NCBI GenBank assembly: GCA_965263355.1
Contig: CBDHHL010000008.1
Location: forward strand, 1-42,393
Source: Leptolyngbyaceae cyanobacterium
GTDB lineage: Bacteria > Cyanobacteriota > Cyanobacteriia > Phormidesmidales > Phormidesmidaceae
DNA: 42,393 bases
Direction: 5' to 3'
Shown here: positions 8,847 through 29,454 of the stretch, one piece after another
How positions within the stretch are numbered: the first letter of the stretch is position 1
How the letters are laid out: every line of letters starts with the position of its first letter
Program-made: the position numbers and the translations under genes
Notes under the pieces: model-generated
Seen by the model: the letters and a program-made list of their open reading frames with translations, nothing else
The model's database searches: none
What the model was told of the DNA's origin: nothing

Positions 8847-9656
8847 TTAAGGAATATCGCTACGCAGGCTCTTAGCCGCTTTTAGGTAGTGGGCCATAGC
8901 ATGATCATCAATACTGTCCGCAACAAGTCCAAGTATTTTACTAACTCTGGTCGCTGATATTGAGACCGCCCCCCAAATACTAGCGCCAGTCCCGTACAGC
9001 TCGCCTTGATCACTAAAGATCAGTGCTCCCGAACGCCCTGGTGACAGCTCAGAGTACGGATGCCATGCCCCGACCTCAGCTGGTGGCAGATTGGCGACAA
9101 CATCGCTGTCATGCACCAGCCTAAATAGACTGCGGTGTAAGGCGAGTACTTCGTAAAGTTGCGCCCCCTGCTGGTTAAAAATCCTTGGCGCGCCTGCAGT
9201 AACACAGCTAAGAATAGTCCATCCATCTAGACGCAGCAGTATTGACAGGATTTCTGCGATCGCGCCGCCCAGCGAATGCCCGCATAGGTGAATTGACTTC
9301 CTCTCGATAGCGCCCTGCATGAATAGCTCGTCTAGCTGCCCTTTAATGAAACGTGCTCCCCTCAAAAAGCCGCGATGGAAGCCCACCTTAAACCCTTGAT
9401 AATCATCGTAATCGGGTCTAAAGAGTAGGTTAAAACGTGTCCAATTTCTGGCGTTCGTACTGCCCCTAATGGCCAGGGCATGACTGCCGCCCACCGCAGT
9501 AAGGACAGCTCTTAGGGAACCAACCGGCATCTCAACAGCACCGTCAGGAAAGGCGTCCAGTCCTGGACTGTAGACTGCTGCCGCGTACTCTACGCCACGC
9601 TGAACAATCTCGATCTCAGTAGGTGTTAGATGACTCCTGTTGTTATTAAAATCCAT
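8847..9656 (-). CDS. Class 3 lipase-like alpha/beta hydrolase
   Basis: AIRGS, FHRGF, GHSLGGAIA nucleophile elbow, GAPR, DVVANLP, C-terminal DHAM; likely start ATG 9656 overlapping the endolysin end. Confidence 0.88.
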   Translation of the reverse strand: MDFNNNRSHLTPTEIEIVQRGVEYAAAVYSPGLDAFPDGAVEMPVGSLRAVLTAVGGSHALAIRGSTNARNWTRFNLLFRPDYDDYQGFKVGFHRGFLRGARFIKGQLDELFMQGAIERKSIHLCGHSLGGAIAEILSILLRLDGWTILSCVTAGAPRIFNQQGAQLYEVLALHRSLFRLVHDSDVVANLPPAEVGAWHPYSELSPGRSGALIFSDQGELYGTGASIWGAVSISATRVSKILGLVADSIDDHAMAHYLKAAKSLRSDIP

Positions 9657-10650
9657 AGTTCCAGCGTGCCCTATAGCCACGGTTATCGTAATGGGTGAAA
9701 CTTGTGGCCGATGCAATGCCGTTATCTGCCAGCACTGAATTAACTACACGATAGTTAACCGTCGCTGGGCTGTGGCCAGCGATAGTGAAATCACACGCCC
9801 GCCCCTGACAGTGTTGAGATCGACTTGCACCGCCAACGCGGCGATTAGTGACCGGATCTCGATAGCCGCTATTGATTGTCATTGCGGCGTTTCCAAATAA
9901 ATTACGGATGATTTGAAGATCCTCTGCCAGGTTAACGAGCCGGATCGTAATATCACTATTCTCAGGGCATCGAAAGCTAGATCCGTCAAAGTGCAGCAAT
10001 TCATACCAAAAGATGTTAGGAGCTTTCTCTGCATGTACCGGGTCGTACATATTCAAAGCACTGATACCAGGAACTAGTCTGGTTATCCACGACCGTTGCT
10101 CCTTACGTTGCTCCGGATTGGTCGTTGGAGTGTCAGTCGGCTTATTGTCCGGCTCGCTCCCTATGATTTCAATGTGACCATCGTCGTCATCGTCTCCGAT
10201 AAAAGCCCACCAGACGCCGCGACCGTTGATCTCATTCTTAAGAGTGACCCTTACACACTTGCCTTCACGCTCGCCGATCTCCTCAAGAATTAGACTGGAA
10301 CCCTTCTCAAGATAAAGAACCTCATCAGGAGAGTGTTCGCTCGCCTGCCTGCGTGGGTCGGTTTTGAGTGCTGTCCTATGATTGACACGAAGCAGTTGAT
10401 CGAACGGCTCAAAATCGGGAGGAAAAACATACACGTCAGCCCCAACGGTTGGGTGAGGGTGATCAAGATGGGTCAAATACTTAATTCCGTCTGGCATTTC
10501 ATAGCCAGACATGTTAAAGGGTACTTCTGCCAATACGTCAAACTTATGATCATCGGGCTGCTCACTTGCTTGCCCTGGTCCTTTTGTTGCAACTGTCCGC
10601 TTGAGAGGCATTGCGAACAGCTGTTCTTGGATGAGATTGTATGTAGTCAT
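9646..10650 (-). CDS. Endolysin with C-terminal M15A-family Zn peptidase domain
   Basis: INSGYRDPVTNRRVGGASRSQH..GRACDF...FTHYDNRG; N-terminal region likely binds cell wall. Confidence 0.88.
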   Translation of the reverse strand: MTTYNLIQEQLFAMPLKRTVATKGPGQASEQPDDHKFDVLAEVPFNMSGYEMPDGIKYLTHLDHPHPTVGADVYVFPPDFEPFDQLLRVNHRTALKTDPRRQASEHSPDEVLYLEKGSSLILEEIGEREGKCVRVTLKNEINGRGVWWAFIGDDDDDGHIEIIGSEPDNKPTDTPTTNPEQRKEQRSWITRLVPGISALNMYDPVHAEKAPNIFWYELLHFDGSSFRCPENSDITIRLVNLAEDLQIIRNLFGNAAMTINSGYRDPVTNRRVGGASRSQHCQGRACDFTIAGHSPATVNYRVVNSVLADNGIASATSFTHYDNRGYRARWNYGF

Positions 10651-10737
10651 GATTCGCTGTTATTTTGGTCATTTGCTACCGACACACCCGCTTGAACTAT
10701 AGCAGCTCGGATGATTCGGAATTTTAATCCCCGAATC

Positions 10738-10790
10738 ATTAAAAGTTTTGCAGGGTAAGCCGACGCAACCTACCCTGCAAAACTTTTAAT
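10738..10790. repeat. Dispersed palindrome copy 1 (20-bp arms, 13-bp spacer)
   Basis: ATTAAAAGTTTTGCAGGGTA-agccgacgcaacc-TACCCTGCAAAACTTTTAAT; hairpin ATGATTCGG/CCGAATCAT directly left (10711-10739). Confidence 0.95.
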
Positions 10791-10850
10791 AATGATTGCT
10801 CTAATTTTCCAATGATAAGATTGCCATGGCTGAACAATCCTGAGAACCTT

Positions 10851-10875
10851 GGCGACTTCGGTCGCCTTTTTTTTT
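10851..10875 (+). terminator. Rho-independent terminator
   Basis: GGCGAC-TTCG-GTCGCC followed by T9 on the + strand. Confidence 0.8.
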
Positions 10876-10878
10876 GCG

Positions 10879-11325
10879 TTAGCAGTAGCCGTCAATGTTG
10901 TCGGCGATTAGTTTATCCCTCTGTCCTGCTCTGCCTACACTAACGATTTCTTGCACTGGGGCGTTGCCAGCTTGGTCACAGGGGAGTGTCACAGTGCCTG
11001 CAGCCAGCATTTTCAGCCAAGACAGAGCATCCTCGTAGCGCTGCCGCACGTCTTCTCTTGGTCTCAGCATGTCAAGAAAGTAGCGGGCAATATCTGCGGC
11101 TTTAGTCTGTAAGACGACTGGTGTTGTAGTCGTGGTCAGCGTCTTTAGATAGTCGGCATATTTGGCGCTCGCGTAGGAGCTGATCAAGTCCTCTGCTTTA
11201 TTGATATTGGCTTGGATGAGCGCTTCATTTGGCTTGGTCGCCTCAGGATGATGCAGTTGTGAAAGCTGCGTCATCTCTGTTGCTCCAAATAACTCAACCA
11301 TGCCCGCTGGGTCGACGAACGGCAT
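10879..11325 (-). CDS. Mu gp36 (DUF1320) head-tail adaptor
   Basis: ELFGATEMTQLS...AEDLISSY...ADIARYFL...VRQRYEDALSWLKMLAAG. Confidence 0.9.
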   Translation of the reverse strand: MPFVDPAGMVELFGATEMTQLSQLHHPEATKPNEALIQANINKAEDLISSYASAKYADYLKTLTTTTTPVVLQTKAADIARYFLDMLRPREDVRQRYEDALSWLKMLAAGTVTLPCDQAGNAPVQEIVSVGRAGQRDKLIADNIDGYC

Positions 11326-11326
11326 C

Positions 11327-11722
11327 TTATGCCCCCCTCAAAACTTCAATTTCCACATCCTGCTTAAGCGTAACCCCATCTACCGTAATAAATAAGAATA
11401 CAGAACGCATCATGATTTCACTGAGCTTGTCGCCTGGATCTGCTAACAACTGGGCAGTATCCGCAGCTGGAATTGTCCCGGTCCACCCACCGACCTGTCC
11501 ATTGACCACTAGAGTAGGAACCCAGTTAAGCGAATATCCCCCGACACCTATAGCTCTTGTCGCCGCGTGTTCAGACGTATAGCGAGAGTCAAGAAAATTA
11601 GCTTCCACTATCGCTGTGTCCGCTGGGATTGTCCCGTCCTCAGTAATTAGCCTAATTTGCAGTGACCACGGCTCGCCCGCAATCATGCCTAGTTTCGAAT
11701 CTGTCAATGTAATGTAGGGCAC
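11327..11722 (-). CDS. Hypothetical virion-associated protein
   Basis: 131-aa ORF in the late operon, beta-rich. Confidence 0.55.
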   Translation of the reverse strand: MPYITLTDSKLGMIAGEPWSLQIRLITEDGTIPADTAIVEANFLDSRYTSEHAATRAIGVGGYSLNWVPTLVVNGQVGGWTGTIPAADTAQLLADPGDKLSEIMMRSVFLFITVDGVTLKQDVEIEVLRGA

Positions 11723-11788
11723 TAGTATTCCTCCCTGTTGCCGTCCGTAAAGTAGGCGTAAGTTTAATTCTGGTTCCGTTTACCGACG

Positions 11789-12946
11789 TTAGTGTTCTAT
11801 AAGCTCGATGTGAGTCATATGATCGGGCTGACTGTCCGCTATCGATTTCGCTTGTTGCTCAATGAAGTCAGCATCAACAAATATGGGGCACGGCGCAATC
11901 TTGACTTCAAAGTTCATCAGCGCTTCATAAACCATCGGATTTATGCCCGTCTCAGCATTAATCAGTTCATCCAGAAAAACAAAGCTATTTAGGCATTGAT
12001 TGCCTTGATAGTGACTTCCACAGTCGCCCATAATCTTCGTGTGGCGTTCCCCAGCCATTACATTACGGACTACTTGAGCGGTCGTATCTTTTTCTGTATA
12101 TTCGCCCGCGTCACAGGAGAGCGCATTGCCAGCAAGCGTGTTGTTCTTTACGGTATTAATTCGGCTTCCCCCCTTAACAGTATTCAGGCCAATTCCAGAC
12201 TTGCCATTAAACACGCTGAGATTGTCTTTAATTAGTAGATTGCCCCGGTAGATGCCCGTGTCGTTCTGAAAGTGAATGCCGTTGCCTTCATCTAAGGCCA
12301 TGGTTGCGAAGCCCTTAGAGAACACTCGTGAGATTACATTGCATTGGTTTCCAAAAACCAGATTTTCAGAGATTTCATACAACGTTTCCGGCGGTCCTTT
12401 TGGCTGACTATTGGCAATGCCATGGCTGCCGCTAATCGAATACCAGCAATTATGATAAATGGCGTTGCCTTTGATCAGATGAGAGTGCCCATCTTTGTTG
12501 GATATTCCCGCCCCTGGAAAATGATGGATTTTACATCCCTGAATTCTGATATTTGAACAATTGTTTAGTGCGATGCCCCGTCCTGTTATTTGGATCGGCG
12601 TATCCTCCCACCATAGAGATAACGCATAGTCTAGGTCTAAATCCTGGCTATGACCTGCAAACTCTATATCACTGATATAAACGTGATTGGAGTTTTTTAT
12701 CGCTAAACCATTTACGTCGGATATGACCTTCACCGGACCATCGCCAAACGGCATTATCCTAATTGGAGCTTCGGCTGTTCCTTTTAGCCAGCTGGCAAAA
12801 AATGCGCTTCTACAGGTCCGTGCTTCCCATGCAGTGCTGTATTCCTCATGTTGATAAACGCCAGACTTTAGCAGGATACGATCGCCTGCCTCAGCAACTT
12901 TGAGTGCATTTTTGAATTGATCTGATGTCTCGATAATGAATCTCAT
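11789..12946 (-). CDS. Right-handed parallel beta-helix (pectate-lyase-like) protein, possible depolymerase
   Basis: ALKVAEAGDRILLKSGVY, GTAEAPIRI, and repeated I.NN/GNGI beta-helix turns. Confidence 0.8.
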   Translation of the reverse strand: MRFIIETSDQFKNALKVAEAGDRILLKSGVYQHEEYSTAWEARTCRSAFFASWLKGTAEAPIRIMPFGDGPVKVISDVNGLAIKNSNHVYISDIEFAGHSQDLDLDYALSLWWEDTPIQITGRGIALNNCSNIRIQGCKIHHFPGAGISNKDGHSHLIKGNAIYHNCWYSISGSHGIANSQPKGPPETLYEISENLVFGNQCNVISRVFSKGFATMALDEGNGIHFQNDTGIYRGNLLIKDNLSVFNGKSGIGLNTVKGGSRINTVKNNTLAGNALSCDAGEYTEKDTTAQVVRNVMAGERHTKIMGDCGSHYQGNQCLNSFVFLDELINAETGINPMVYEALMNFEVKIAPCPIFVDADFIEQQAKSIADSQPDHMTHIELIEH

Positions 12947-12954
12947 GATGATAG

Positions 12955-13584
12955 CTAATTCCCGAAAAATCCTGCGTTACTAGCATCAAACGCAAAAATA
13001 GGACTTGCCCTGATAGACTCAGCGACAGTCTCTTTATTTCTCATGACTCTATCGAAGCCAAAGGCCACATACCCAAATATATCGCCATTCTGAGCCAATA
13101 TAGGACAGGAGATAGTTAGCTGAATATTATTAGGCTCAAGTTGCTGTCTCAATAGGCCTGCTGGGAGATCCTGAGTAGGCTTAACCCAGCACTGGCCTAA
13201 CTTATGGTAATCGAGCTGTTCCAGATAGATATCCTCTTGCTGGATATCTAACCACCCGTAGGTAGCCGATACCGGAACCCCGATCCGTGCGATCGCAAAA
13301 CTAAAGCGCCGACGTTGGTCCTCGTCATATAGGAATGACCCGACCCATTGAGCGTCCAAACGATCCCCCATAGAGGTTATTACATCCTCAATTGATTGCT
13401 GATAAATAAGCCCTCTAGCGATGCCCTGCGCTATAGAACCAGGCGTCCTGATCTGAAGACAAACATCACTAAACTGAGTGTGCAAAAACCAGAACGATAT
13501 AAGACCAAAGCTTAGCCCTAGCAGGAGGCTAAGCAGCATCCGGCCTATCGAGCTACGGAAGAACGGAAATAGAGATCTAATCAT
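12955..13584 (-). CDS. Single-TM protein with GAF-like C-terminal domain; T4 T-like holin candidate
   Basis: N-terminal TM (aa ~16-34); ISCPILAQNGDIFGYVAFGF GAF-type hairpin; 209 aa. Confidence 0.6.
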   Translation of the reverse strand: MIRSLFPFFRSSIGRMLLSLLLGLSFGLISFWFLHTQFSDVCLQIRTPGSIAQGIARGLIYQQSIEDVITSMGDRLDAQWVGSFLYDEDQRRRFSFAIARIGVPVSATYGWLDIQQEDIYLEQLDYHKLGQCWVKPTQDLPAGLLRQQLEPNNIQLTISCPILAQNGDIFGYVAFGFDRVMRNKETVAESIRASPIFAFDASNAGFFGN

Positions 13585-14350
13585 TTTTACCTCTCGGCCC
13601 GCTATTAGCCTCAGGTTCTACTCTCTTGGCTACCGTATCCTTAGCCTTCGACACAATACCCACAGCTGCGCCCGTCGCATTAACGAGCGCTCCGATCACC
13701 AGGATGGTAACGTCTCGGCCAAAGCTCATTAGCTCGGTAGGTACCCGTCTAAAGATGCTTAGTACAAAGGGAGTCAAGTAGAAAAAAAGGCCCGCATATA
13801 TCAGCCATTTAACGACAAGTTCTTGAAGCTCAGATCGCCGCAATTGAACTTGCATATCTTCATTAGCAGAATTTAGCCGTCTGTTAGCGGATATCAAGTC
13901 CTCATTAGATTGTTCAAGTCTTACAATCAGCTCTCTCTCTTGTTGTTTTTGAGCCTCTATTCTTTTTTCTTGTTCAAGATACTCGGTTCTATCCCTTACG
14001 GCTTCCCCGACATAGGTTTTGCCCTCATGGGTAACGATAAACAGTTTCAGCCATATGGGGATCTGTCGTCCCGTTTTCGTTTTCCCTAGCAACGGGGCTT
14101 CCTTGCCCATTTCACGGGTACGCCTGCCCTGAATAAAGGCATCATATAGCCGGTCATGGACGGTCTCAGGAATAAGATCCTCAGGCACCAAAGCATAGAC
14201 CGGCAGCCCAACCATAGACGCTGGACTCTCGTATTCAAACAGCCTAGCAGCTGCAGGGTTTGCAAGGACGATAGTACGATCGGAATTGCCGAAAATAATG
14301 GGGTCAGGATTATTCTCAAATCCAGCTCTTGCTAACGCTGCGTCAGGCAT
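13577..14350 (-). CDS. FixL-like PAS domain + coiled coil + two TM helices
   Basis: FENNPDPII...IVLANPAAARLFEY...VG..V..LVP...HD...REMG...GKTKTG..IPI...VRDRTE PAS/PAC signature; ATG 14350 overlaps the upstream stop. Confidence 0.88.
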   Translation of the reverse strand: MPDAALARAGFENNPDPIIFGNSDRTIVLANPAAARLFEYESPASMVGLPVYALVPEDLIPETVHDRLYDAFIQGRRTREMGKEAPLLGKTKTGRQIPIWLKLFIVTHEGKTYVGEAVRDRTEYLEQEKRIEAQKQQERELIVRLEQSNEDLISANRRLNSANEDMQVQLRRSELQELVVKWLIYAGLFFYLTPFVLSIFRRVPTELMSFGRDVTILVIGALVNATGAAVGIVSKAKDTVAKRVEPEANSGPRGKND

Positions 14351-15315
14351 CAAATTAAACCATTTTCAGTCGCCCACGGAACTAAGTCTTGATGCGTCCC
14401 TGACGTTACAGTATTAACATAACTCATCCACTGAGCCATGATTCCTAAGAATGCAGTCGTCGAGCCGCCTGGTGGTACGGCTTCTGATGGCAATGATCCG
14501 GATTCCCAAGCGACAAGGTTTGAATAGATGTTTCGGATGGATTCCGCTAATGCTTTTTGATCAGCGTTTGCAGTGGGAGATTGTGAGATCGCATCCCAAT
14601 AATTTATTTCTTCTTGGATAGGAGAAGCCCCGACATAATCGCCACTATCAATGATCGCCTGGTTAGTGACTGCTGCACTGGTTAGCTTGTAAGTGATAGC
14701 CTCTGTTGGCTCAGTCGTAGGACTGGGGATTACTACAGGTTCGGATATTGCGGCTATTTCTTCGATTTTATATTTAAAGCAGCCAGCAATCTTGAACTGC
14801 CAATCTAGCCCCGCAAACCCTTCCAGCTCAACAGTTAAGGCTGTAATGTCCTGTGTCTCGATCGGATCAAACCCTTCCCCCATAGAGATTGTATCGTCAG
14901 ACCTTAGGACGGGCACTGATGGGTTTCGATAGACGGGAGTTATTCCGATGCCAGTCGCCCAGCCTTTCAGCTCATTGTCTGCTGAGATAGTTAGTTTATA
15001 AAACTTGGCTGAGTCCCAACCTCTATGATTAAGTCTTACAGGGGTTTCACTCTCGGTGCAGATCTTAAAAAAACTGCCATCCTCTGTAACTTCAACATTA
15101 GCTGGGTGATTCGGGCTGATGGTGCCAGGTCCAAAGCCCCAGTCAAAATCCCAAAAGTCTCCAGCAATGATGTTTTGCTGCACATCCGTAGCAGACGGGT
15201 TTGAACCGCCAAACAATAATGGAGCAAAAGTTGATTCCTCAGTGGCTGTCGGCGATCCCGTATTAGGGGCCACTGAGGCTATTAGTTTCCCCAGGTAACC
15301 AGCTTTACACGCCAA
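14350..15315 (-). CDS. Hypothetical structural/fibre-associated protein
   Basis: 321-aa ORF overlapping its neighbours in the late operon. Confidence 0.55.
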   Translation of the reverse strand: MACKAGYLGKLIASVAPNTGSPTATEESTFAPLLFGGSNPSATDVQQNIIAGDFWDFDWGFGPGTISPNHPANVEVTEDGSFFKICTESETPVRLNHRGWDSAKFYKLTISADNELKGWATGIGITPVYRNPSVPVLRSDDTISMGEGFDPIETQDITALTVELEGFAGLDWQFKIAGCFKYKIEEIAAISEPVVIPSPTTEPTEAITYKLTSAAVTNQAIIDSGDYVGASPIQEEINYWDAISQSPTANADQKALAESIRNIYSNLVAWESGSLPSEAVPPGGSTTAFLGIMAQWMSYVNTVTSGTHQDLVPWATENGLI

Positions 15316-17354
15316 TCATTCCCGACCCAACCATTCCCGACTGCCATGGAGATCCATAGCTCATGGATAAGATTGATCTCCAGTCTGTCTGTGGGGTCAA
15401 ACTCATACACTTTCAGCATTGCATACTCAACGTCCCCCGCTGCAGCGCCGCCGCCTGTATTAAATTGAAAATCAATTCCGGTAATCTGTCGCGTATCTCC
15501 TGCATCATACGCTATCGTCTCCATTCCCCAGGTGCCAGTGTTAAGAGCATCGCCGCCCCCAACGCTCTCTCTTGCCACTGGCGACGTTTGAATGACTCGC
15601 TTTCGCCCGCTAACGTTGGTCATTCGTATTTGACGAATATCAGACCTAGCATTAAACTGCCAACCTGCTATATCGTCTACTGCGTCGCCGTTCGCAATGG
15701 ATGGACCAAGGACTCCATTGCCCGTTTGGAAATTGAAAACCGTAATATCTCGAATGCCAGTAATAGCGCCAAGGGTAACTGTTAGGGAGACATCAGTAGC
15801 TGGGCTAACGGGGTTCTCAGTGACAACATTAACCACTTGGTACTGATTAACAATATCAAGACCCCCCAGTGTGGCCAGATTTGCGGGCACTGTTGCAACG
15901 CTTGCTATCTTTTGACCCGCTGGAACGGCGACACGGATGCTGTTAACGACGCCGTCAAATATCGTGTTTTCTGTGTCGCTTACTCTGTCAGGACTGCTTG
16001 CATGAATTGTGGAACCGGCTAGGGTTAGTGCCCTAGGCTCTTGCAGTCGGTCAATGGCTGCAACGCTGTAGCCTTGAGACTGCTCCACATAGCCCATTAA
16101 GCCCGAACCATTGATATTCGATCTGAAGCTCCCATAGGGTGAAAAGGCAATTTTTACGATGCCATCGCTTGGGACTGTGAACTCAGGAATAACAACAGCT
16201 TGATAAGAGTGCCGAGCCCCGCTCAATACCGTAGACTTCATCCATACTGCCCATGCTTCAGTGTCGGCTAAAGTTTCTGCGGCAGCATCATCAGCCGCTA
16301 TTGTTCTGTCGCCACCGGATAACACGTTGTCAGCGCTATTTAACGCGCCAACGACATATCCCACAGGAGCACTTGAGCTGTAGCCTAATGGGTGAATCGT
16401 TATGACGACTTTTGCCCCTGGGGTTAGGTTTAATTCCTTCGTGTATGTGTTGCTAGGTGCCCACGTCGTATCGGATGGTGCCACGTCCGCAGCGCCGGGA
16501 GCCATCTTAAAGCTGCTGCGTATCAGCTGATTATCAGGAGTGATACTCGACGGCGCGACTTGACCCGCAGATTCTCTAACCCATCCCGTACCATCGTTAT
16601 AAAGATTAAGTCCCTGAGACTCAGTTAAGCTTGCGTTTGTGTAAGTCGTCCCGTCGACAGTGACGACACTGTTTGGAGGAATGATCGCGTCAACTTTTTT
16701 AGCTGTATTTATATTTGTTGTTAGCGTATAAGTCCCACCAGCTGACAGATAGCCAATGGACGCATAGCCCAGCGTTGCACCGTCCAGCTGCTGAGTGATC
16801 TCTTTTCCGTCGTCCTCGGTAACAAACGTGTCCCAATCTGCCGCCACAAAAGGCCCCGGTGGATCAAGACTCGCCTTATTTGCTGTGTAAAGCGTGCCTC
16901 CTTGAAAAACCTGAGTGCCCGCGAGATAGCCACCCACTAGCGCTGGATCATATCCGCTAGGAATCTCTGGCAAAAGCATTGCCAGTTTGTCCTCTTGGGA
17001 GTCAGGAACCTCGTTTGCAGTAAACGCGTCAGAATGCCATCTGTTATCCTCTGTACTCCAACTTGCAAATGTCCGGGCAATAACACCCTCATTATTTACA
17101 ACATAACGCCTCTGTCCGCCTGTAGTTGGGTCTGCTTCAATTGCCCAGATCGCTCCATTACTGCTGACTACATAATCTCGATCTGTTGCTGCAATTATCA
17201 GCGTATTGCCGTTATTGGCTGTCGCTGGATAGGTAGCAGATATCGCAGCGATCGCAGCAGCGCTACCCGTGGCTGTAACCACCGTGCGATCTTGTGCCGT
17301 GGCTGCGAGTGTATCCGTGGATGAGGTTGGGGTTTGTCGTCTGATAATAGGCAT
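15282..17354 (-). CDS. Fibre/appendage-like protein
   Basis: 690 aa, Thr/Ala/Gly-rich; YLAGTQVFQGGTLYTA..W resembles a CBM5/12-type module. Confidence 0.6.
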   Translation of the reverse strand: MPIIRRQTPTSSTDTLAATAQDRTVVTATGSAAAIAAISATYPATANNGNTLIIAATDRDYVVSSNGAIWAIEADPTTGGQRRYVVNNEGVIARTFASWSTEDNRWHSDAFTANEVPDSQEDKLAMLLPEIPSGYDPALVGGYLAGTQVFQGGTLYTANKASLDPPGPFVAADWDTFVTEDDGKEITQQLDGATLGYASIGYLSAGGTYTLTTNINTAKKVDAIIPPNSVVTVDGTTYTNASLTESQGLNLYNDGTGWVRESAGQVAPSSITPDNQLIRSSFKMAPGAADVAPSDTTWAPSNTYTKELNLTPGAKVVITIHPLGYSSSAPVGYVVGALNSADNVLSGGDRTIAADDAAAETLADTEAWAVWMKSTVLSGARHSYQAVVIPEFTVPSDGIVKIAFSPYGSFRSNINGSGLMGYVEQSQGYSVAAIDRLQEPRALTLAGSTIHASSPDRVSDTENTIFDGVVNSIRVAVPAGQKIASVATVPANLATLGGLDIVNQYQVVNVVTENPVSPATDVSLTVTLGAITGIRDITVFNFQTGNGVLGPSIANGDAVDDIAGWQFNARSDIRQIRMTNVSGRKRVIQTSPVARESVGGGDALNTGTWGMETIAYDAGDTRQITGIDFQFNTGGGAAAGDVEYAMLKVYEFDPTDRLEINLIHELWISMAVGNGWVGNDWRVKLVTWGN

Positions 17355-17447
17355 TGTTTTATAGATTGTAATAAGACCCCTTAGTATTCCTTCGGAAAAT
17401 GGGTCCGTGAATAGCTCCGCTATCCCTGGTCCTGATACATTTTTGCT

Positions 17448-20159
17448 TTAGATTGTAAACGCAGGTAAACTTCTAACCTGGAAATTGTCGTACCGTCCTG
17501 TTGTATTCCTTAACCATCCACCGCATGAATTACCAGAGCTTTGGCTATTAGACGTAACAAATACTTCACCTTCAAATTGCACCCTTATTTCAGAATCAGT
17601 AAATTGAATTAATAACGGGTAAGGCGTGCTGCTATTCAATGCAGCGCCACTATAGGCGTAAGTCTCTAAAACAATATTGTTGTTTTCAAATAACCTAATT
17701 GTATTCGCCTGGTTGTTTGCAATTAGAAATACACCCAGTCGATTAGCAGGCCCTGCGTATCGAAACATTAGACCTGTAACTGCTCCTGCCAGAGTAATAT
17801 TTGCTGAGACCTCAACAATTGGTCCAGCCCAATCATTCTTAGTTGTGTAAAAGAAACCGTTTGCATTTCCCACTCTAGCTGCTTGGCCAGAACTTGCCAC
17901 AACATTACCTGATGCGTCAACTGTCCACCCTTGTCCACTTGTGTCCGTATCTAAGACGTAGGCTGCATCATCTAAAGCAAGGCTGCCTGAGAAGGTATCT
18001 AAAAATTCAGTAGTTGCAACTGAAGATGACGTTGTAGCCGCTATCGCAGAGACAGATTGATTGCCTGCTTTATCTTCTATAACAGTGAACACCTCATAAT
18101 CAGTGCCACTCGTTAGCCCTGTTAAGGTGACAGCACTTGTACTACTCGTGTAACTCAATGCCACACTTGCTGAGTCAATCGCCCCAGTCCCTGCCTTGAT
18201 AGCAGCTGCCCCAGGATTAGTGGTCCCGTCTGTATATATGGATGCATAAAAAGTAGCAAACTCTGACGAACCTGCTCTTACGTCTATACTTGTTTGTTGA
18301 ATATTCTCAACTGCGGGTGACAAACTAACGTTAACCAAAGGATCACTCCAGACTCTGGCCCCCAAACTCAGGCATTCAGTGATGTAAGCATCCGCCAATT
18401 GCCTATACCCCTCATCTAGGAAATGAACCGAATCACTCGCCACTGAAAAGCTATCAGCATTGATTAATCGTACATTTGCATCGTTGTTGGCTATAGTTTG
18501 CTGAGCCGATAGTATTTGTGCTCTTGTCGTCACATTACCTAAAGTTGTGGCAGAAAGAATCTGGACTAAGACAACGGGATAATCGGCTATGCCAATGTAA
18601 CTACGCAAATTAGCAATAAAGGTTGTTAACTGAGCTTCGTAATTTGGAGCATGAGTCACATTTTGTAAATCTGCTTCATGCTGAACAAATAGTAAGGGTA
18701 GTAAATATACTGTTCTTCCTTGGTTTTGCAATTCAGCAAGGCCAGGTTTAAGGAAATGATTTTCAAGTGCATTGGCTAAACCATTACCTGGCCCCCATAG
18801 GCCAGTTCCAGAGTTAAACCCTGTACTTCCTTGCGCACACTGTATCACTCGGATATCGTTAGTTGTTTCATCCTCCAAGCGTTTGGCAACCCATATGGAC
18901 GGATCTGGAAAGGAGCTACCTTCACGATTAGTATTAACGCCTAACTCAAAGGTTTGGAATGCTGCGTCATCATTTATAGACAACTGATCAGCTTTGTAAT
19001 ACGTTTGCACTCGACTAGAAAACGTGTGTGAAAATAAGGTTGCCCCCGGTCCTCCTTGCCATCCGTTTGCATTTGACTGACCCGCATCCGAATAAACAAC
19101 CGTTGCCCCAACAGGGAATAGATCTTGTAGTGACGGAGTAGCCGACCCCGCAATAGTAGAACCCAAGACAGTTGCCGCAACCTGGTTACCCGCCGCATCC
19201 CTGAAACCATCTGTAGGAACGGATACGGTGTAGCTACCGACTACTGTTGGAGTAATGTCAAATGTGACTGTGCGAGATAACGTATCTCCTGTATTGCTAG
19301 CAATTGCAACAGTAGCGTTGTTCTGTCCATCAGTGACTGAGATTGAACTAGCCGTGATGGTGGTGAGATCTAGAGAAACAGTATCCGCAAAGACTACCAC
19401 TATTTGGAAAGTAGAACCAACAGTCGTATTTGCCGGAATCGCGCCAGATAATGTTGCGGTTGGGGCAGTGTTGTCTACTGTAGAGTTATTGATAACGCCT
19501 TGATTAGCAACAGTGCCCAAAGTCGCACCGTTTTGAGCCGTAACAGGGTTCACTCCAGGTGCGTAGGAGATTGTGATCGAGTCAGAACCTGTATAGGCAG
19601 AATCTACGGTTAGAGTAATCACTGAGCCTGCAATAGCAACATTATTTACAGTCTTTCCACCTGATACTGTGAAGTCAGTTGTTGCGGGGACACTAGCGCC
19701 ATCTAATGCGCTGCTAAACGTCAGCACAATCTGATCAGGGTTCGCGTCCTCTACACTGGCTGATGCTAGCGATAAAGTTGGCCCGCCCGTTACAGGAGAC
19801 ATATCTCTAGCGTAATATGTCACATCTACTGTAATGATTGATCCTGTCGAAGCAACTAACGATGGATTCGTTACCAACCCTGATATTAAGTCCTCTAGTG
19901 CCGTCGCATTGCCAGGGGCATATCCAAATCCGATAGAGCTGCCAAGCGGTAAGGGGGCAGAATCATTAATTGATATCGTCGCATTGCTAGGGACAGCAGA
20001 CGACACATAAAAAGTGACCCCAGTTATATCATTTGGCACATTGCCAACTGTTCTAAGAAAAACTTGCGTATCCGTAATATTTGGGATTTGCTCGGTAGCA
20101 CCTGCCTCAGGCTGAGCAGATAGTTTAAGTTGTGCAATAAAACTGTTAATTACGCTCAT
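17448..20159 (-). CDS. Multidomain surface/fibre protein: SwmB-like and Ig repeats, SGNH (SASA/DUF303-like) acetylesterase, FN3-like and lectin-like domains
   Basis: IVLTFSSALD..SVPATTDFTV repeat; AGQSNA, QGSTG, QHEAD, DSVH SGNH motifs; LTGLTSGTDYEV FN3 motif. Confidence 0.75.
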   Translation of the reverse strand: MSVINSFIAQLKLSAQPEAGATEQIPNITDTQVFLRTVGNVPNDITGVTFYVSSAVPSNATISINDSAPLPLGSSIGFGYAPGNATALEDLISGLVTNPSLVASTGSIITVDVTYYARDMSPVTGGPTLSLASASVEDANPDQIVLTFSSALDGASVPATTDFTVSGGKTVNNVAIAGSVITLTVDSAYTGSDSITISYAPGVNPVTAQNGATLGTVANQGVINNSTVDNTAPTATLSGAIPANTTVGSTFQIVVVFADTVSLDLTTITASSISVTDGQNNATVAIASNTGDTLSRTVTFDITPTVVGSYTVSVPTDGFRDAAGNQVAATVLGSTIAGSATPSLQDLFPVGATVVYSDAGQSNANGWQGGPGATLFSHTFSSRVQTYYKADQLSINDDAAFQTFELGVNTNREGSSFPDPSIWVAKRLEDETTNDIRVIQCAQGSTGFNSGTGLWGPGNGLANALENHFLKPGLAELQNQGRTVYLLPLLFVQHEADLQNVTHAPNYEAQLTTFIANLRSYIGIADYPVVLVQILSATTLGNVTTRAQILSAQQTIANNDANVRLINADSFSVASDSVHFLDEGYRQLADAYITECLSLGARVWSDPLVNVSLSPAVENIQQTSIDVRAGSSEFATFYASIYTDGTTNPGAAAIKAGTGAIDSASVALSYTSSTSAVTLTGLTSGTDYEVFTVIEDKAGNQSVSAIAATTSSSVATTEFLDTFSGSLALDDAAYVLDTDTSGQGWTVDASGNVVASSGQAARVGNANGFFYTTKNDWAGPIVEVSANITLAGAVTGLMFRYAGPANRLGVFLIANNQANTIRLFENNNIVLETYAYSGAALNSSTPYPLLIQFTDSEIRVQFEGEVFVTSNSQSSGNSCGGWLRNTTGRYDNFQVRSLPAFTI

Positions 20160-20161
20160 GA

Positions 20162-20761
20162 CTATCTCAGAGTAAGGATCAATCTACAGTCAACTGTCGC
20201 TGTTATATCTACTGTGCTATCTTCTCGACGCAACCTGACGGCATATGCGCCCTCCAAGGAACCTGAGTCTGAACCCGTATGCCCGACCGTATCTCCCTGA
20301 GTTGGAGCTGCTGAATCTGCTTCAATCAAATCAAATTCATCAGCTGCCGCCGTCTGGAAAAAAGAAATTTCTGGATAGAAAACAAGTGGTCCATTAAGGG
20401 CAGAACTATAGTTGGTAACTTTGATCGCTGCTAGAACAGAAACAAGCTTTCTACCCGTTGGAATTGCTACCGGTGTTGATACTTCATTTTGAGTGCTTAA
20501 CGTAAAGGTTGTTCTTAGCTGCTCAGTTGGACGCTCGCCTGAAAGACCCTGAATACTATTAAGAACTGCATCAGTCGCCCCCGTACCGATAGGCACTGTG
20601 ACCGTTCTATCGATGTCGGCGTATAGGACTTGATCGGTTTGATTGTACCAACCACGGTCAACAGTGCCGTCATTCAACTCGTATTGAACAGCATCGATTT
20701 CAGGGTTGTTTGCACTCCCCACTGCTGAAGTATTTGGGAGAAAAGCGCCGATAGCTGGCAT
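20162..20761 (-). CDS. Hypothetical virion protein
   Basis: 199 aa; shares TVxIGTGxTxAxL with the 519-aa protein. Confidence 0.55.
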   Translation of the reverse strand: MPAIGAFLPNTSAVGSANNPEIDAVQYELNDGTVDRGWYNQTDQVLYADIDRTVTVPIGTGATDAVLNSIQGLSGERPTEQLRTTFTLSTQNEVSTPVAIPTGRKLVSVLAAIKVTNYSSALNGPLVFYPEISFFQTAAADEFDLIEADSAAPTQGDTVGHTGSDSGSLEGAYAVRLRREDSTVDITATVDCRLILTLR

Positions 20762-20763
20762 TA

Positions 20764-20988
20764 TTAATCCTCCTCTGCTGAAACAACACGGGCTCCGGCA
20801 CAGAACAAAGTCTTATGAACCTTGTTAGAGATAATTAACTGACCATCTTTAACGGAAATAACAACTGGTTCATCGTTGCCATCACCAAAACCTAGCCAAA
20901 CTGCAAACTCATTAGACAGATCGATATAAAACGTTTCACCGTCTCTTATTCTTGCGAACGCGATCGCTTTCAAAGCCTCACCGCTCAT
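20764..20988 (-). CDS. Small hypothetical protein
   Basis: 74 aa, start overlaps the upstream stop. Confidence 0.5.
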   Translation of the reverse strand: MSGEALKAIAFARIRDGETFYIDLSNEFAVWLGFGDGNDEPVVISVKDGQLIISNKVHKTLFCAGARVVSAEED

Positions 20989-21635
20989 ACCATCACCTCA
21001 TAAATAAACAACGACATATGCCACCACGCTATACCCTTGGTGGTGTTACTGCCACCATCAGCGTTATAAGCCCCTAAACACAACTTTTTAGGGCTTGTTT
21101 CTCCTGATAGGTCCAAATAGAATTCTCCAGACAATAGGCGCAACGTGCCTGTATTGTCGTTCTCCCCAGTGCCGTCCGCTTGATAATTCAATAGGCCCGC
21201 TGCGTGCGGGCCCGGATCTGAGGCAATGACTTGAGCCTCAAATAGATCAGCGTCCATTAGCCCGATATCGATATACTCGCCATTGCTCCAATTTTGGAAG
21301 CCAAAATTGTAGTGGCCCCTATAGAAAAACCCGTTTTGAAATTCGAAGTCCTTGCCAACGGTACTAGAACCTTCAGGGATTTCAGCCCCGCTAGAGTCCA
21401 GTAGCTTAATTTTTGCTCCTTTAATCCTGGCCTGTGAAACTCTCGCGGCTCCGCCCGTGCCAAACGTGAAGGTTGTTCTAATTAGTGGGACTTTTGCGTC
21501 TTCAGGGTCGTTACTGTTTGGCCTAAACGTGATATTCGTTGGCTGAGCTGAACCTGGCGCGCCATTAGCAGGCATCGCAAACCAGGCCATGCTATCAGGG
21601 AACCTGGACGAAATGAATTTCCCAGTAGGAGCCAT
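20985..21635 (-). CDS. Hypothetical virion protein
   Basis: 216 aa, coupled to neighbours. Confidence 0.55.
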   Translation of the reverse strand: MAPTGKFISSRFPDSMAWFAMPANGAPGSAQPTNITFRPNSNDPEDAKVPLIRTTFTFGTGGAARVSQARIKGAKIKLLDSSGAEIPEGSSTVGKDFEFQNGFFYRGHYNFGFQNWSNGEYIDIGLMDADLFEAQVIASDPGPHAAGLLNYQADGTGENDNTGTLRLLSGEFYLDLSGETSPKKLCLGAYNADGGSNTTKGIAWWHMSLFIYEVMV

Positions 21636-23194
21636 TACTGCACAACCTCTCTTGCGACAATCTCACCAGTTGCCGCCGATTCTGCGATTACTCGAATCTC
21701 CCCGTTAAAATCATCCGGTTCAAATCGGCCAGCCGGAATTGTGTAAACGTAATTTCCCCCGGTCGTTTGGGCAGCAGTAGAGCCGTATTGGACGTAAACG
21801 GTTTGATTCGTGCTATTTCGAATGACCACGTTTACTCTACTTGGATTCGCGGGCACTAACTGTTGATCAACATTGAGATTGGCACTAAGTACAACCGGAA
21901 CCGATGCACTTTGTTGAACTGCCGTGTTAGCCCCCGTACCACCCGTCAAGAACCAGGATAAATCAGGCTTATTCCTAGCAATCCTAGGGCCAGGGAACGC
22001 CCCTTGATATTGACGGATCGTCATTCGCGAGCGACTAAATGCTGTAGCTGCACCCGCAATATCTTGGTTGCCAAATACTCGCAAGGCCTCCAATGCACTA
22101 CGGCTAATCGTTATCGTGGTTCCATTGCTTGCCCATTGCCCTAACTCTGATGCGATCGTGGGGTTCGGGACGGGGCCATCGGTCGTGTAAATTAACAGCC
22201 ATTCATTTTCTGTCGCGACTGCCGTCGTCTCACTCTCAGTGTTGATTTGAGCAAGCCTATCTTGAGCGATTTCAAACGTGATGGTCGCGAACGTCGTCAC
22301 AGGCGATACGGTAAACCCAGTTGCGCCCGTAATAAGCCCGCCTGCAATTGGCCTGTCCGCTGTGGCCACTGTGTCGCCTGTGACCGGGATTTCGAGAACA
22401 GATTCAGAAACTAACAGTATCGGGTCGTTAGTGCTCGAAGCTCCAACTACTGCCGTAACGATCGCGTTCCCGTTAGCGGTCCCAATCGTAATTCCGTTCT
22501 CATCGGAAAACGCGTCATTGGCCGTGGGATAAACAAGGTCATCGCGACCAATGACCGCAAAGCCACTGTTCCCCGTGCTGGTGGTACCACCGGCCCCATC
22601 ACTAATATCGTAAGTGACAGATTCAAGCGAGCCTAAACCGCCAGTGGAAGAGCTTGCTGTCAGCTGGGCTTCTGTCGGCCCAGTACCAATCGTTACAGTT
22701 GCCCCTGATGGGATATTAGCTAGGGTCGTTCCATCGGCTGATAGGATGCCGAACAGCACAGGCCCAGCCCCATTAATTTGATAAGGCGTTGCTGACGGTG
22801 ATGGGGCCAACTGGTCTATGTCATCACTCGCCAAGGTAAACCTTGGCGTGTTTGCATCGACAAGGCCAGAACTTGTGGCAACTGTTGCAGGAAAATTTGT
22901 AACCTGAGTTGCCCCAGCTATTCCACCAACCGGTTCAACGTTTGTTGGGGCAGCCGCCAAAACTGCATTAGTCGTTGTGTTAAGCCATTCTGGTGGGTCT
23001 GTTCCAATTTGCCTAAGAACCAAAACGTCGCCAGCGTTATAACCAACTCCGCCACCTGCGGCCCCCTGAACAGTGGCGTAAATATTTGTAGGTACACCAC
23101 TAGTCCCAACAACTAAAAGATTGCCGCCCGCGTCAGCAAGTAAAGGGATCGGCTCTCCGTTAGGGTCAAGCCCGTAGATCAGGCGGCTGCTCAT
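21635..23194 (-). CDS. Putative head decoration/fibre protein
   Basis: 519 aa, Gly/Thr/Ala-rich; C-terminal LVPANPSRVNVVIRNS...YVQYG beta-sandwich motif seen in phage structural proteins. Confidence 0.55.
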   Translation of the reverse strand: MSSRLIYGLDPNGEPIPLLADAGGNLLVVGTSGVPTNIYATVQGAAGGGVGYNAGDVLVLRQIGTDPPEWLNTTTNAVLAAAPTNVEPVGGIAGATQVTNFPATVATSSGLVDANTPRFTLASDDIDQLAPSPSATPYQINGAGPVLFGILSADGTTLANIPSGATVTIGTGPTEAQLTASSSTGGLGSLESVTYDISDGAGGTTSTGNSGFAVIGRDDLVYPTANDAFSDENGITIGTANGNAIVTAVVGASSTNDPILLVSESVLEIPVTGDTVATADRPIAGGLITGATGFTVSPVTTFATITFEIAQDRLAQINTESETTAVATENEWLLIYTTDGPVPNPTIASELGQWASNGTTITISRSALEALRVFGNQDIAGAATAFSRSRMTIRQYQGAFPGPRIARNKPDLSWFLTGGTGANTAVQQSASVPVVLSANLNVDQQLVPANPSRVNVVIRNSTNQTVYVQYGSTAAQTTGGNYVYTIPAGRFEPDDFNGEIRVIAESAATGEIVAREVVQ

Positions 23195-23514
23195 ACTGTA
23201 ATCCTATGAACGATCTCATTCCAAGCGGTCGTATTCATCTCTGCTATTTCTTGAGCAGACTCAACGGTTTCAATTGGCCTAGCATTAATCAGCTTTTGAG
23301 CGGTAGCAGGGCCAACCCCAGGCAGGGCGATAAGCTCTGATGCAGACGCCTGATTGAGGTTGATGACATCAGGTGCTTCAGACTCGCCAAGGATCGCGAT
23401 AGCGCTCAGCTCTAAAAGTGAACCAACCGAATCGCTAGGGATATCCAACTCAGCCCCGACAGGGTAAAGCTTCCCCTTTACTATCAGCTCAGAAAGGCAT
23501 TTAACTTTTGTCAT
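23191..23514 (-). CDS. Small protein with ComEA-like helix-hairpin-helix DNA-binding domain
   Basis: INLNQASASELIALPGVGPATAQKLINARP; directly after the capsid gene. Confidence 0.85.
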   Translation of the reverse strand: MTKVKCLSELIVKGKLYPVGAELDIPSDSVGSLLELSAIAILGESEAPDVINLNQASASELIALPGVGPATAQKLINARPIETVESAQEIAEMNTTAWNEIVHRITV

Positions 23515-26898: not shown

Positions 26899-28253
26899 TG
26901 GCTGCTGTTCAATTACTGCCGTATCAGATCGAGTCATTCAAGGATCGCTCAAGATTAAAGTTACTCATGTGGAGTCGCGGCGCTCGCAAGACTTTTACTT
27001 GCACTCTAGAGATTGTAGATAGCATCTTTTCTCAGGAGGCAGCGGGCCAGCGCGACGAATGGACAATCCTTAGCGCTGGTGACCGCCAAGCGATTGAGGC
27101 AATCCAACACGCTAAGCGTCACTGTGTTGCGTATTTGATGAATGCGGTGAACGTGATCAAAGGAGAGTTCGTTAGTGAAGACGGAAAGCGCCGCTACACA
27201 ACTCATGAGATTAGATTTCCAAAAGGCTCAGTGATTCGCTCGGTGCCTGCAAACCCAGATACTGCTCGCGGGTATACAACAAATTTTTATTTAGATGAAT
27301 TTTCAATTCATGAAAAGCCAAACGAGATCTGGCGAGCGGTCTATCCCTCGTTGAGAGGCAAAAAACGGATGATCATAAGCTCAACGCCTAAAGGTGGGCG
27401 TGCGAGTAAGTTCTATCAGATTGTCCACGATGAAACTTCGTTATGGTCAAGGCATGAGATTGATATCCACGAAGCCGTACGCCAGGGATTGCCAGTCGAT
27501 ATCGAAGAAGAAAAAGCAGCGATGGGCGATCCTGACGGCTGGGCTCAAGAATACGAACTCAAGTGGATTGATGAAGCCTCAGTCTGGCTGCCCTACGAAT
27601 TGATTCAACGCTGCGAACATGAAAACGCCGATCGCCCTGAGCTATACAGCAATGGAGCAACGTTCATCGGAAATGACATTGGGCGACGAAAAGATTTGTG
27701 GGTAGCGTGGGTGATTGAGCGAGTCGGGGACGTGCTCTGGACTCGCGAGATTAGCGTTTTGCGTGGGGCAAGCTTCCATGAACAAGATGAAGAAATGGAC
27801 CGTCTCATCCGAAGATACCACCCTAGTCGAATAGCTATGGACCAGACTGGTATCGGTGAGAAACCAGTTGAAGATATGCAGCGCCGCTACGGTGAAGCGA
27901 TGGTTGAAGGCGTCGTTTTCTCGAATAATAGTAAATACGTCTTGGCAACAACTTTGAAACAGGCGTTTGAAAATTTTAGGTGGAGAATCCCGATCAACAA
28001 GGAAGTCAGGGATGACTTACACAAGCTAAAGAGAACGACAACGCTCAGTGGCGCTCCAAAGTTTGACGCTGATGCCGACGAGCTTGGTCATGCAGATCGA
28101 GCATGGGCAGGAGCACTCGCACTTTACGCCTCAGGTATGGGGGGGAAAATCGAAGCTCGACGGCGTAATAGCTGGTCCCATACCCCAGACTACACAGTCA
28201 AACGCCCTGATCGCAGGTATGCCCGCATGGGTGGATCGCGATCTCGACCTTAG
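26895..28253 (+). CDS. terL: Terminase large subunit (Mu gp28-like)
   Basis: LLPYQ, WSRGARKT (Walker A variant), YLDEF (Walker B), SSTPKG, GNDIGRRKD, MDQTGIG, GHADRAWA. Confidence 0.95.
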   Translation: MMAAVQLLPYQIESFKDRSRLKLLMWSRGARKTFTCTLEIVDSIFSQEAAGQRDEWTILSAGDRQAIEAIQHAKRHCVAYLMNAVNVIKGEFVSEDGKRRYTTHEIRFPKGSVIRSVPANPDTARGYTTNFYLDEFSIHEKPNEIWRAVYPSLRGKKRMIISSTPKGGRASKFYQIVHDETSLWSRHEIDIHEAVRQGLPVDIEEEKAAMGDPDGWAQEYELKWIDEASVWLPYELIQRCEHENADRPELYSNGATFIGNDIGRRKDLWVAWVIERVGDVLWTREISVLRGASFHEQDEEMDRLIRRYHPSRIAMDQTGIGEKPVEDMQRRYGEAMVEGVVFSNNSKYVLATTLKQAFENFRWRIPINKEVRDDLHKLKRTTTLSGAPKFDADADELGHADRAWAGALALYASGMGGKIEARRRNSWSHTPDYTVKRPDRRYARMGGSRSRP

Positions 28254-29283: not shown

Positions 29284-29454
29284 CCCAATAAAAGGGCCAC
29301 TGGAGTCAGTTGGAGACTCAGCGACCCAAACAGTAAGTACTAACTCATATCATATAGCCTCTCAAGTAGCTCGCGATCTCTATCTTCTTTTTGCGATCTC
29401 AGCCGATGCTCGTAGGCAGTCAGAAACAAGCCAACAACACTGACAACAATCGCG

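Follow-up and report, generated by a model that had tools for sequence, protein, structure and literature searches.

The 42,393-bp record CBDHHL010000008.1 (assembly GCA_965263355.1, filed under a Leptolyngbyaceae cyanobacterium; the whole of this stretch is called the window here) is that of a tailed phage carrying Mu-type head genes, and on its minus strand two overlapping genes encode a membrane protein with a PAS sensor domain (gene 1) and a protein laid out like holin T of phage T4 (gene 2). The PAS domain of gene 1 is closest to heme-PAS domains and keeps their proximal His, and it is followed by a long helix and a two-helix membrane hairpin. Gene 2 has a remote, profile-level match to holin T, and the homologues of the two genes co-occur. 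Our favored reading, to which we assign a probability of roughly 0.4, is that gene 2 may be a holin whose action gene 1 regulates in response to a signal. A more specific version, in which a heme-based gas or redox sensor with a membrane hairpin as its only output gates a T-type holin, so that oxygen or redox state sets the moment of lysis, seems rather unlikely taken as a whole. The original prediction, made by a model from the DNA letters alone, had described a PAS sensor coupled to a GAF-type holin candidate and had proposed an O2- or redox-gated lysis timer. The gene pair, the heme-PAS kind of the sensor and the likeness to holin T held up, whereas the GAF fold, O2 as the signal and the proposed tie to photosynthesis and day or night were not supported.

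An overlapping gene pair and its holin T-like member

As had been predicted, two overlapping open reading frames (ORFs) occupy this part of the minus strand (Table 1), and all of the motifs that had been quoted from them (TVHDRLY, REMG, LEQSNEDL..ANRRLNSANED, AQWVGSFLY, YHKLGQCW and ISCPILAQNGDIFGYVAFGF) were present in the translations. The database copy of gene 1 starts at an ATG; a TTG one codon upstream would extend the ORF to 13577-14353 (258 aa). The ATG of gene 1 shares bases with the stop codon of an upstream 321-aa gene, the end of gene 1 overlaps the start of gene 2 by 8 nt, and a gene for a 385-aa beta-helix protein begins 8 nt past the gene 2 stop. A Shine-Dalgarno-like GAGAGG stretch precedes the gene 2 ATG, and the two genes may be translationally coupled. 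GC content and third-codon-position GC content (GC3) of both genes are like those of their neighbors, so that the two look like integral late genes of one operon, and their expression would presumably be late. Three other 90%-identity clusters hold full-length homologues of gene 1 (76, 65, and 63% identity), and three likewise hold full-length homologues of gene 2 (87, 57, and 55% identity). This full-length conservation in three further clusters each argues that both are real genes and not chance ORFs. Linkage of the homologues was a further expectation, and it was supported by database entries: each of the ten gene-1 homologue entries equals a gene-2 homologue entry in the size of its longest contig (165173 bp twice, then 96382, 102076, 102311, 91294, 129265, 97585, 31832, and 8353 bp). 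This would place the homologues of the two genes on shared contigs, and for one of these contigs within 8.4 kb of each other. Six of the 16 gene-2 entries had no size match, perhaps since solely the longest contig is reported for each entry.

Class III holins are defined by one transmembrane (TM) helix, an N-in/C-out orientation and a large periplasmic domain (PMC9636201). Gene 2 has this layout, with 209 aa (218 aa in T4 T; about 200-220 aa would be typical of T-type holins), one N-proximal TM helix at residues 13-31 and a large C-terminal domain. The helix is preceded by a short Arg-rich N-terminus (three Arg), and the distribution of charge suggests an N-in, C-out orientation. The outer domain contains three conserved Cys, and in an alignment of 16 sequences (A3) the residues Q123, H127, C132, S159-C160-P161 (codons 13102-13110), and G171 are invariant in the family. 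A HMMER search with a four-sequence gene 2 profile against 1.84 billion representatives of all lengths returned 15 proteins at E <= 0.001, none of which was a fusion of PAS and T-like parts. Thirteen of these, the window protein included, are 139-233 aa long and have a common layout. The other two, a 398-aa protein (E 3.7e-4) and an 842-aa repetitive protein, were both weak matches and were left out of A3.

Several comparisons connect this family to holin T. The top match of gene 2 in the ESM Atlas was a viral 'holin' cluster (score 0.95, 194 of 256 features shared), 45% of whose members carry PF11031 (Phage_holin_T), and phrog_860 'holin' was a weak match in three of the 16 family members. 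Ten annotated T-type holins were aligned (those of T4, of six other T4-like phages and of three T5-like or Vibrio phages), and hhalign matched the 16-member gene 2 family to them with a probability of 93.2% and an E-value of 3e-7 over 157 columns, running from the membrane helix to near the C-terminus. The match persisted when both TM helices were removed and the outer domains were compared alone (90.5%, E 1.4e-6, score 44.1), while two reversed and 20 column-shuffled controls scored 8.7-18.6, none of the 22 coming near 44.1. The family matched the T4-like holins alone with an E-value of 1.5e-4 and the T5-like ones alone with 8e-6, and its 12 distant members by themselves matched holin T with 6e-7. 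In these alignments H127, S159-C160-P161, and G171 of gene 2 fall on H145, S174-C175-P176, and G186 of T4 T; the holin alignment keeps H145, C175, P176, and G186 without exception and has Ser or Thr at position 174. Gene 2 is thus very probably homologous to holin T, as far as profile comparison can tell. Gene 2 resembles the T4 protein (gene t; PF11031; PDB 6PSK, 6PX4, and 6PXE) in its length, its one N-proximal TM helix and its Cys-containing outer domain, and the likeness to T4 T that had been proposed was therefore borne out in size, single-TM topology and hhalign homology, but a GAF fold was not established for gene 2 or for T4 T. The phage itself differs from the T4- and T5-like phages, having a Mu-like head and a record of about 42 kb.

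The GAF-like domain had been proposed together with the single N-terminal TM helix, and of the two the helix alone was recovered. Two GAF models (PF01590 and PF13185) were tried. GAF matched one of the 16 family members (P0031, residues 59-178 against positions 6-119 of 133) with 20.9 bits, below the cut-off of 22.4, and GAF_2 matched another one of the 16, with an E-value of 0.18, so that a GAF-like fold of gene 2 is conceivable but not established. The window protein had no Pfam family at E <= 1 or E <= 5, its sole match among the PHROGs was weak and to an unannotated PHROG, and searches of PDB sequences with gene 2 profiles gave chance-level rows only. Foldseek with the gene 2 model, which was poor (see below), found nothing at E <= 0.001; T4 T and a GAF chain were among its insignificant rows, which is no evidence for either. 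The word GAF does not occur in the available parts of three papers on T4-type holins (PMC12162936, PMC11413866, PMC9636201).

The sensor domain and membrane hairpin of gene 1

The full PAS domain that had been proposed for gene 1 was readily found. Pfam PAS_9 covers residues 16-124 of the 258-aa ORF (E 6.1e-9, 36.5 bits against a cut-off of 27), PAS, PAS_8, and PAS_4 also exceed their cut-offs, which makes four Pfam PAS models in all, and a scan at E <= 1 returned nothing besides PAS families and one weak unrelated match. The best NCBIfam model was the generic sensory_box, followed by DosP and FixL. A profile of four gene-1 homologues had 16 matches among PDB sequences at E <= 0.01, and 14 of them were heme-PAS domains (four DosP constructs, two EcDOS heme domains, seven FixL sequences and FG214), the best being DosP at 2.3e-8. 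When the PAS domain alone was searched, ten of 12 matches were heme-PAS domains, with FG214 in first place. An AlphaFold2 model of gene 1 had a mean predicted local distance difference test score (pLDDT) of 72.1, with values of 79-92 over most of the PAS domain, and its best Foldseek match was the BjFixL heme domain (1drm; E 1.3e-9, TM-score 0.85, 27% identity), in agreement with the FixL-type fold that had been expected. Among the Foldseek matches listed, all down to rank 33 were FixL, FG214, or EcDOS/DosP, and LOV domains followed. The closest matches of this domain are therefore FixL, the rhizobial O2-sensing kinase, DosP/EcDOS, an O2-sensing cyclic di-GMP phosphodiesterase of E. coli, and FG214, a redox-switched one-component regulator (PDB 10jx). 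As in these sensors, a PAS end of the Arg-Asp-x-Thr-Glu type leads straight into a long coiled-coil helix. They differ from gene 1 in that it has no kinase, phosphodiesterase or DNA-binding output and carries a two-helix membrane hairpin instead.

The His of TVHDRLY, His65, had been proposed as a FixL-type proximal ligand, and the alignments agree. It is invariant in four of four homologues and is aligned with DosP His77 (the numbering was checked from the alignment start and from the Ala at position 97 of R97A entries) and, in a separate alignment of the PAS domain only, with FG214 His156, which is assigned as the proximal heme ligand of that protein (bioRxiv 10.64898/2026.03.15.711900). The distal side is less similar. 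Met95 is an axial ligand of DosP, and work on His77 and Met95 mutants appears in the reference list of the same paper (PMC4263535). At the position of DosP Met95 the gene 1 homologues have Lys, Ser, or Arg, at that of the O2-binding Arg97 an invariant Ala (Ala85) is found, and FG214 His175 corresponds to Glu84. REMG does lie in the FG-loop region, as had been suggested, and its Met81 is aligned with FG214 Met172, an alternative distal participant, but the residue is Ile in two of four homologues. With both DosP distal residues, Met95 and Arg97, lost, O2 sensing in the style of FixL or DosP is doubtful; the replaced Arg97 speaks against the O2 signal of the original prediction, and we consider O2, one of several ligands that such a domain might take, an unlikely signal for gene 1 on the basis of its sequence.

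It is quite conceivable that this PAS domain holds another ligand, or none, and acts mainly as a dimerization or protein-interaction module, with regulation unrelated to O2 or redox, a view that cuts across the alternatives discussed below. An identity of 25-28% to heme-PAS domains would fit it, as would the unconserved distal ligands of DosP and FG214 and the presence of the FG-loop Met in two of four homologues. Yet the best matches by sequence, by profile and by fold are all heme-PAS domains, ahead of LOV and other PAS classes, and the proximal His is invariant and falls in place in two independent alignments. Moreover, FixL is described as making do with a single proximal His and no distal ligand from the protein (bioRxiv 10.64898/2026.03.15.711900). 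The domain of gene 1 looks like a heme-PAS domain that keeps its proximal His and whose distal side is either open, as in FixL, or different in some other way, and on balance it probably binds heme.

A coiled coil followed by two TM helices had also been read from gene 1, and both were recovered. The model has one continuous helix at residues 122-202 and a second at 205-242, with pLDDT values of 73-92 up to residue 190. Relative to its three homologues, gene 1 of the window has exactly seven extra residues in the long helix, and an indel of this length corresponds to one heptad, which keeps the helical register, as expected of a signaling coiled coil. The membrane hairpin consists of TM1 (13763-13819, residues 179-197) and TM2 (13655-13711, residues 215-233, both in the numbering of the 258-aa ORF), separated by a 13-residue loop. 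TM2 shows small-residue spacing of Gly and Ala and is followed by a Lys-rich tail. Since the protein has no N-terminal hydrophobic segment, its PAS domain and its tail should both be cytoplasmic (N-in/C-in). Among the four homologues the hairpin is almost invariant and is the most conserved part of gene 1. It had no family match in Pfam, PHROG or the ESM Atlas, and a search for shorter proteins that correspond to the gene 1 C-terminus by itself found none.

Two TM helices with both termini inside are the topology of class II holins (PMC9636201), a resemblance that the original prediction overlooked. The C-terminal 90 residues of gene 1 share with class II holins and pinholins (such as phage 21 S21-68) this topology, the small-residue spacing of TM2 and a charged tail. 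Unlike any described class II holin, however, the hairpin of gene 1 stands behind a sensor and helix of 175 residues, and where a class II holin would be a small two-TM protein with a holin-family match, gene 1 has 257 aa, a sensor domain and no such match. The roles of the two proteins could conceivably be the reverse of those that we favor, with the gene 1 hairpin forming the hole under control of its own PAS domain in cis and gene 2 acting as a T-like accessory regulator or antiholin. The two TM helices with their short loop, G/A spacing and Lys-rich tail would suit a hole-former, as would the high conservation of the hairpin, and the globular domain of T4 T is described as regulatory only (PMC12162936). 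We regard this reversal as improbable. The hairpin matches neither a holin family nor any other and has no stand-alone short homologue, while gene 2 keeps the entire architecture of T, membrane helix included. The gene 2 family also reaches well beyond the clade that has a gene 1 partner, which makes gene 2 look like the core component and gene 1 like an add-on.

A possible sensor-controlled holin

The favored reading, gene 2 as holin and gene 1 as its signal-responsive regulator, draws on several of these observations together. Gene 1 accompanies only the closest gene 2 clade, appears to be coupled to gene 2 and is predicted to sit in the same membrane, from which we infer an accessory regulator. 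In this scheme gene 2 would serve as the holin of the phage and belong to a remote lineage of the class III holin T family (that of T4- and T5-like phages) which had not been recognized before, and gene 1, translated from the same message and coupled to it, would be a membrane-tethered antiholin or trigger. A cytoplasmic dimer of the heme-type PAS domain would read a diatomic gas or a redox signal, and the signal would travel down the coiled-coil helix as it does in FixL. Instead of switching a kinase, it would alter the packing of the two-helix hairpin, and the hairpin would hold or free the membrane helix and the short cytoplasmic N-terminus of gene 2, so that the timing of lysis would follow the oxygen or redox state of the host. 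Phage T4 offers an analogy. Its holin T is controlled by one periplasmic and one cytoplasmic antiholin, and the globular domain of T is regulatory (PMC12162936, PMC11413866). The counterparts of gene 1 in this comparison would be the antiholins RI and RIII, which couple T to superinfection and inhibit it through its periplasmic and cytoplasmic parts; the likeness of gene 1 to them is a functional one only. Like T4 t, gene 2 is probably a late gene beside tail-fiber-type genes, with a separate nearby protein that possibly imposes signal-dependent control. Prediction of a complex between residues 120-257 of gene 1 and residues 1-80 of gene 2 gave no verdict (score 0.00).

Beyond the altered distal side of the PAS domain, several findings weigh against this reading. 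PF11031 matched none of the 16 gene 2 family members at E <= 5 (its gathering score is 22.2 bits, and T4 T itself scores 394.7 bits), and gene 2 stays below every Pfam and PHROG holin threshold. The four close homologues of gene 2 alone reached an E-value of just 0.018 against holin T, which means that for the window protein the link is transitive, passing through distant members of the family. An AlphaFold2 model of gene 2 built from four sequences was poor (pLDDT 36.5), rising above 70 in helix 12-40 alone. T4 C207, which we take to form a disulfide with C175, lies outside the aligned part and has no aligned counterpart in gene 2, whose family has instead its own invariant C132, a residue that could serve as the disulfide partner of C160. 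A periplasmic disulfide is essential in T4 T (PMC12162936). The cytoplasmic N-terminus of gene 2 is also short, about 14 aa against about 34 aa in T4 T, where this region is essential and its helix is needed for the switch to pore opening (PMC11413866, PMC12162936). The pair does not adjoin the endolysin candidate. Lastly, only the closest gene-2 clade (three clusters) proved to have a partner resembling gene 1, and none was detected for the distant gene-2 relatives. Taking the aligned core and these differences together, gene 2 is best regarded as representing a new and remote branch within the class III holin T superfamily.

No pairing of a PAS sensor with a holin was found among the papers that literature searches listed, as judged from titles and the beginnings of abstracts, which is in line with the novelty that had been claimed for this pair. 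The moment of lysis matters greatly to the fitness of a phage, and among studied phages the best-understood signal-dependent control of it is lysis inhibition of the T4 type, exerted through antiholins. If the proposal were true, gene 1 would represent a new class of antiholin, a sensor-antiholin, and its signal would be the first physiological input to lysis timing besides superinfection and membrane energization. Phages would then read the metabolic state of the host, be it oxygen, redox or other gases, in deciding when to burst, with a bearing on how phage-driven mortality is modeled for habitats that are illuminated or vary in oxygen, and if the host were cyanobacterial, bursting would be tied to photosynthetic activity. 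The T-type (class III) holin family would likewise extend beyond the T4- and T5-like phages. A compact sensor-to-membrane switch could also serve in controllable lysis systems, and the pair lends itself to direct testing, as two small genes that can be expressed in E. coli.

Genomic surroundings of the pair

Nearly all structural genes of the window lie on the minus strand. Pfam and PHROG scans recognized a Mu-type portal, Mu F, a virion morphogenesis protein, head protease, scaffold, major head protein, Mu gp36-like adaptor, Gp37, tape measure and large terminase. The major head protein has solely distant relatives, at <30% identity, in 41 isolated phages of Proteobacteria. Between the module of the major head protein and the head-tail adaptor lie about 11 kb of mostly unannotated genes (11789-23194, minus strand), where a Mu-like head and tail operon would not usually hold such a block. 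Its ORFs encode proteins of 519, 216, 199, 903, 690, and 321 aa, the gene 1/gene 2 pair and the 385-aa beta-helix protein. The 903-, 690-, and 321-aa genes flank the pair on one side and the beta-helix gene on the other. The 903-aa protein carries a SASA acetylesterase domain and SWM repeats, while the 690- and 321-aa proteins are unknowns. The pair thus appears to be flanked by putative host-recognition or depolymerase genes, with the head-tail adaptor beyond.

Table 1. Positions in the window of the gene pair, its domains and the endolysin candidate.
Feature	Position	Strand	Basis
Gene 1: heme-type PAS, coiled-coil helix and two-helix membrane hairpin, 257 aa from ATG	13577..14350	-	ORF; Pfam; AlphaFold2
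PAS domain, residues 16-124 of the 258-aa ORF	13982..14308	-	Pfam; PDB profile search; Foldseek
His65 codon, candidate proximal heme ligand	14156..14158	-	Alignment with DosP His77 and FG214 His156
Long signaling helix/coiled coil, from PAS to membrane	13817..13987	-	AlphaFold2; alignment
Two-helix membrane hairpin and charged C-terminal tail	13655..13819	-	Hydropathy scan; alignment
Overlap of gene 1 end and gene 2 start, 8 nt	13577..13584	-	ORF coordinates
Gene 2: class III (T-type) holin-like protein, 209 aa	12955..13584	-	ORF; hhalign; ESM Atlas
Single N-terminal membrane helix of gene 2, residues 13-31	13492..13548	-	Hydropathy scan; model helix 12-40
Outer (predicted periplasmic) domain of gene 2, about 165 aa, non-hydrophobic	12958..13452	-	Alignment
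Probable endolysin, 334 aa, C-terminal M15 peptidase domain, no TM segment	9646..10650	-	Peptidase_M15_3 E 2.7e-19; phrog_894 endolysin E 3.1e-20

The probable endolysin, expected about 2 kb away, is an M15 peptidase whose gene lies 2.3 kb downstream of the pair; it also resembles a MepK-like L,D-endopeptidase (NCBIfam). The pair sits in a structural operon, with no compact lysis cassette around it. This setting bears on an alternative in which the two proteins form a membrane module of the late operon that has no part in lysis and serves superinfection exclusion, remodeling of the host envelope, or sensing linked to virion or tail-fiber assembly. Such a module would be at home among the putative host-recognition and depolymerase genes (the 903-aa SASA esterase, the 690- and 321-aa proteins and the 385-aa beta-helix protein), the peptidase is 2.3 kb away, the homology to holin T is remote, and a lysis role for the gene 2 family is itself argued from sequence. 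Against this stands the arrangement in other phages, where T-type holin genes often lie beside tail-fiber genes and away from the endolysin: in five of seven T4-like loci a tail-fiber gene is directly upstream of t, which makes the place of the pair among tail-fiber-like genes a normal one for a T-type holin. (In the three T5-like or Vibrio loci an endolysin gene follows t in every case, one of them coding for an M15 peptidase.) Neither protein matches a defense model in PADLOC, and no alternative holin was recognized in the window, where no other ORF scanned against PHROGs had a holin-family match. We therefore hold a role outside lysis to be unlikely, and holin plus regulator remains the reading that we prefer.

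A scan of 9000-21500 for promoters and terminators gave nothing that sets the pair apart from its operon, and no tRNA genes were found in the window. Outside the protein clusters described above, scans of genome, viral and metagenome contigs for relatives of gene 1 and gene 2 yielded no usable locus; two candidates, L002 (a 13-residue match) and L012 (an unrelated 640-aa protein), were spurious and were dropped. The gp36-like adaptor as query found no syntenic viral contigs. There was no match for P0001, P0005, P0032, or P0036 by tblastn against 50,697 phage records, for P0001 by tblastn against 72,556 plasmids, or for 7 kb of the window by megablast against the phage records. Sequencing runs containing the sequence comprised three DNA runs of one study, with no RNA run among the matches listed.

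Some other features of the window may be recorded. Directly after the M15 peptidase gene a class-3 lipase or esterase gene is found (8847-9716, minus strand; Lipase_3 E 1.3e-18). By ORF coordinates the two genes overlap by 71 nt, and they have the Mu gp36-like adaptor on one side and the Gp37 homologue on the other. LysB esterases of mycobacteriophages act on the outer membrane, and by analogy a lipase beside an endolysin could have the outer membrane as its target. A strong GC-rich hairpin with nine T behind it (10851-10875) lies within the 230 bp that separate the adaptor gene from the M15 peptidase gene; it is on the plus strand, opposite to the surrounding genes. Three consecutive plus-strand ORFs at 35205-36895 encode proteins of 203, 284, and 91 aa, of which the first has two TM segments and the second a TM segment at its N-terminus. 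They have no family match and form an unexplained cluster of membrane proteins that could likewise be related to lysis or exclusion; the unexplained membrane ORFs of the window include 35205-35816 and 35779-36633, with small ones at 29340-29510, 37370-37582, and 38408-38560. Directly after the major head protein gene, a 107-aa helix-hairpin-helix protein (23191-23514, minus strand) weakly resembles photosystem II PsbU; its 20.7 bits (E 4.4e-4) fall short of the cut-off of 24.5, and the likeness probably reflects the shared helix-hairpin-helix motif alone. A 213-aa ORF at 28250-28891 (minus strand) resembles C-5 cytosine DNA methylases, covers the first ~113 of 324 Pfam profile positions and is possibly truncated or split. 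The same 11 bases open and close the record (1-11 and 42383-42393) as an exact direct terminal repeat, which may be what remains of a circular assembly or else a short core for attachment or duplication. Finally, a 792-aa protein (39295-41673, minus strand) is an unusual fusion of two parts, a Mu-type portal at residues 61-394 (Portal_Mu E 5.4e-85) and, in its C-terminal part, a domain resembling protein kinases at residues 557-687 (Pkinase E 6.6e-9, with ABC1 and a PHROG serine-threonine kinase also matching).

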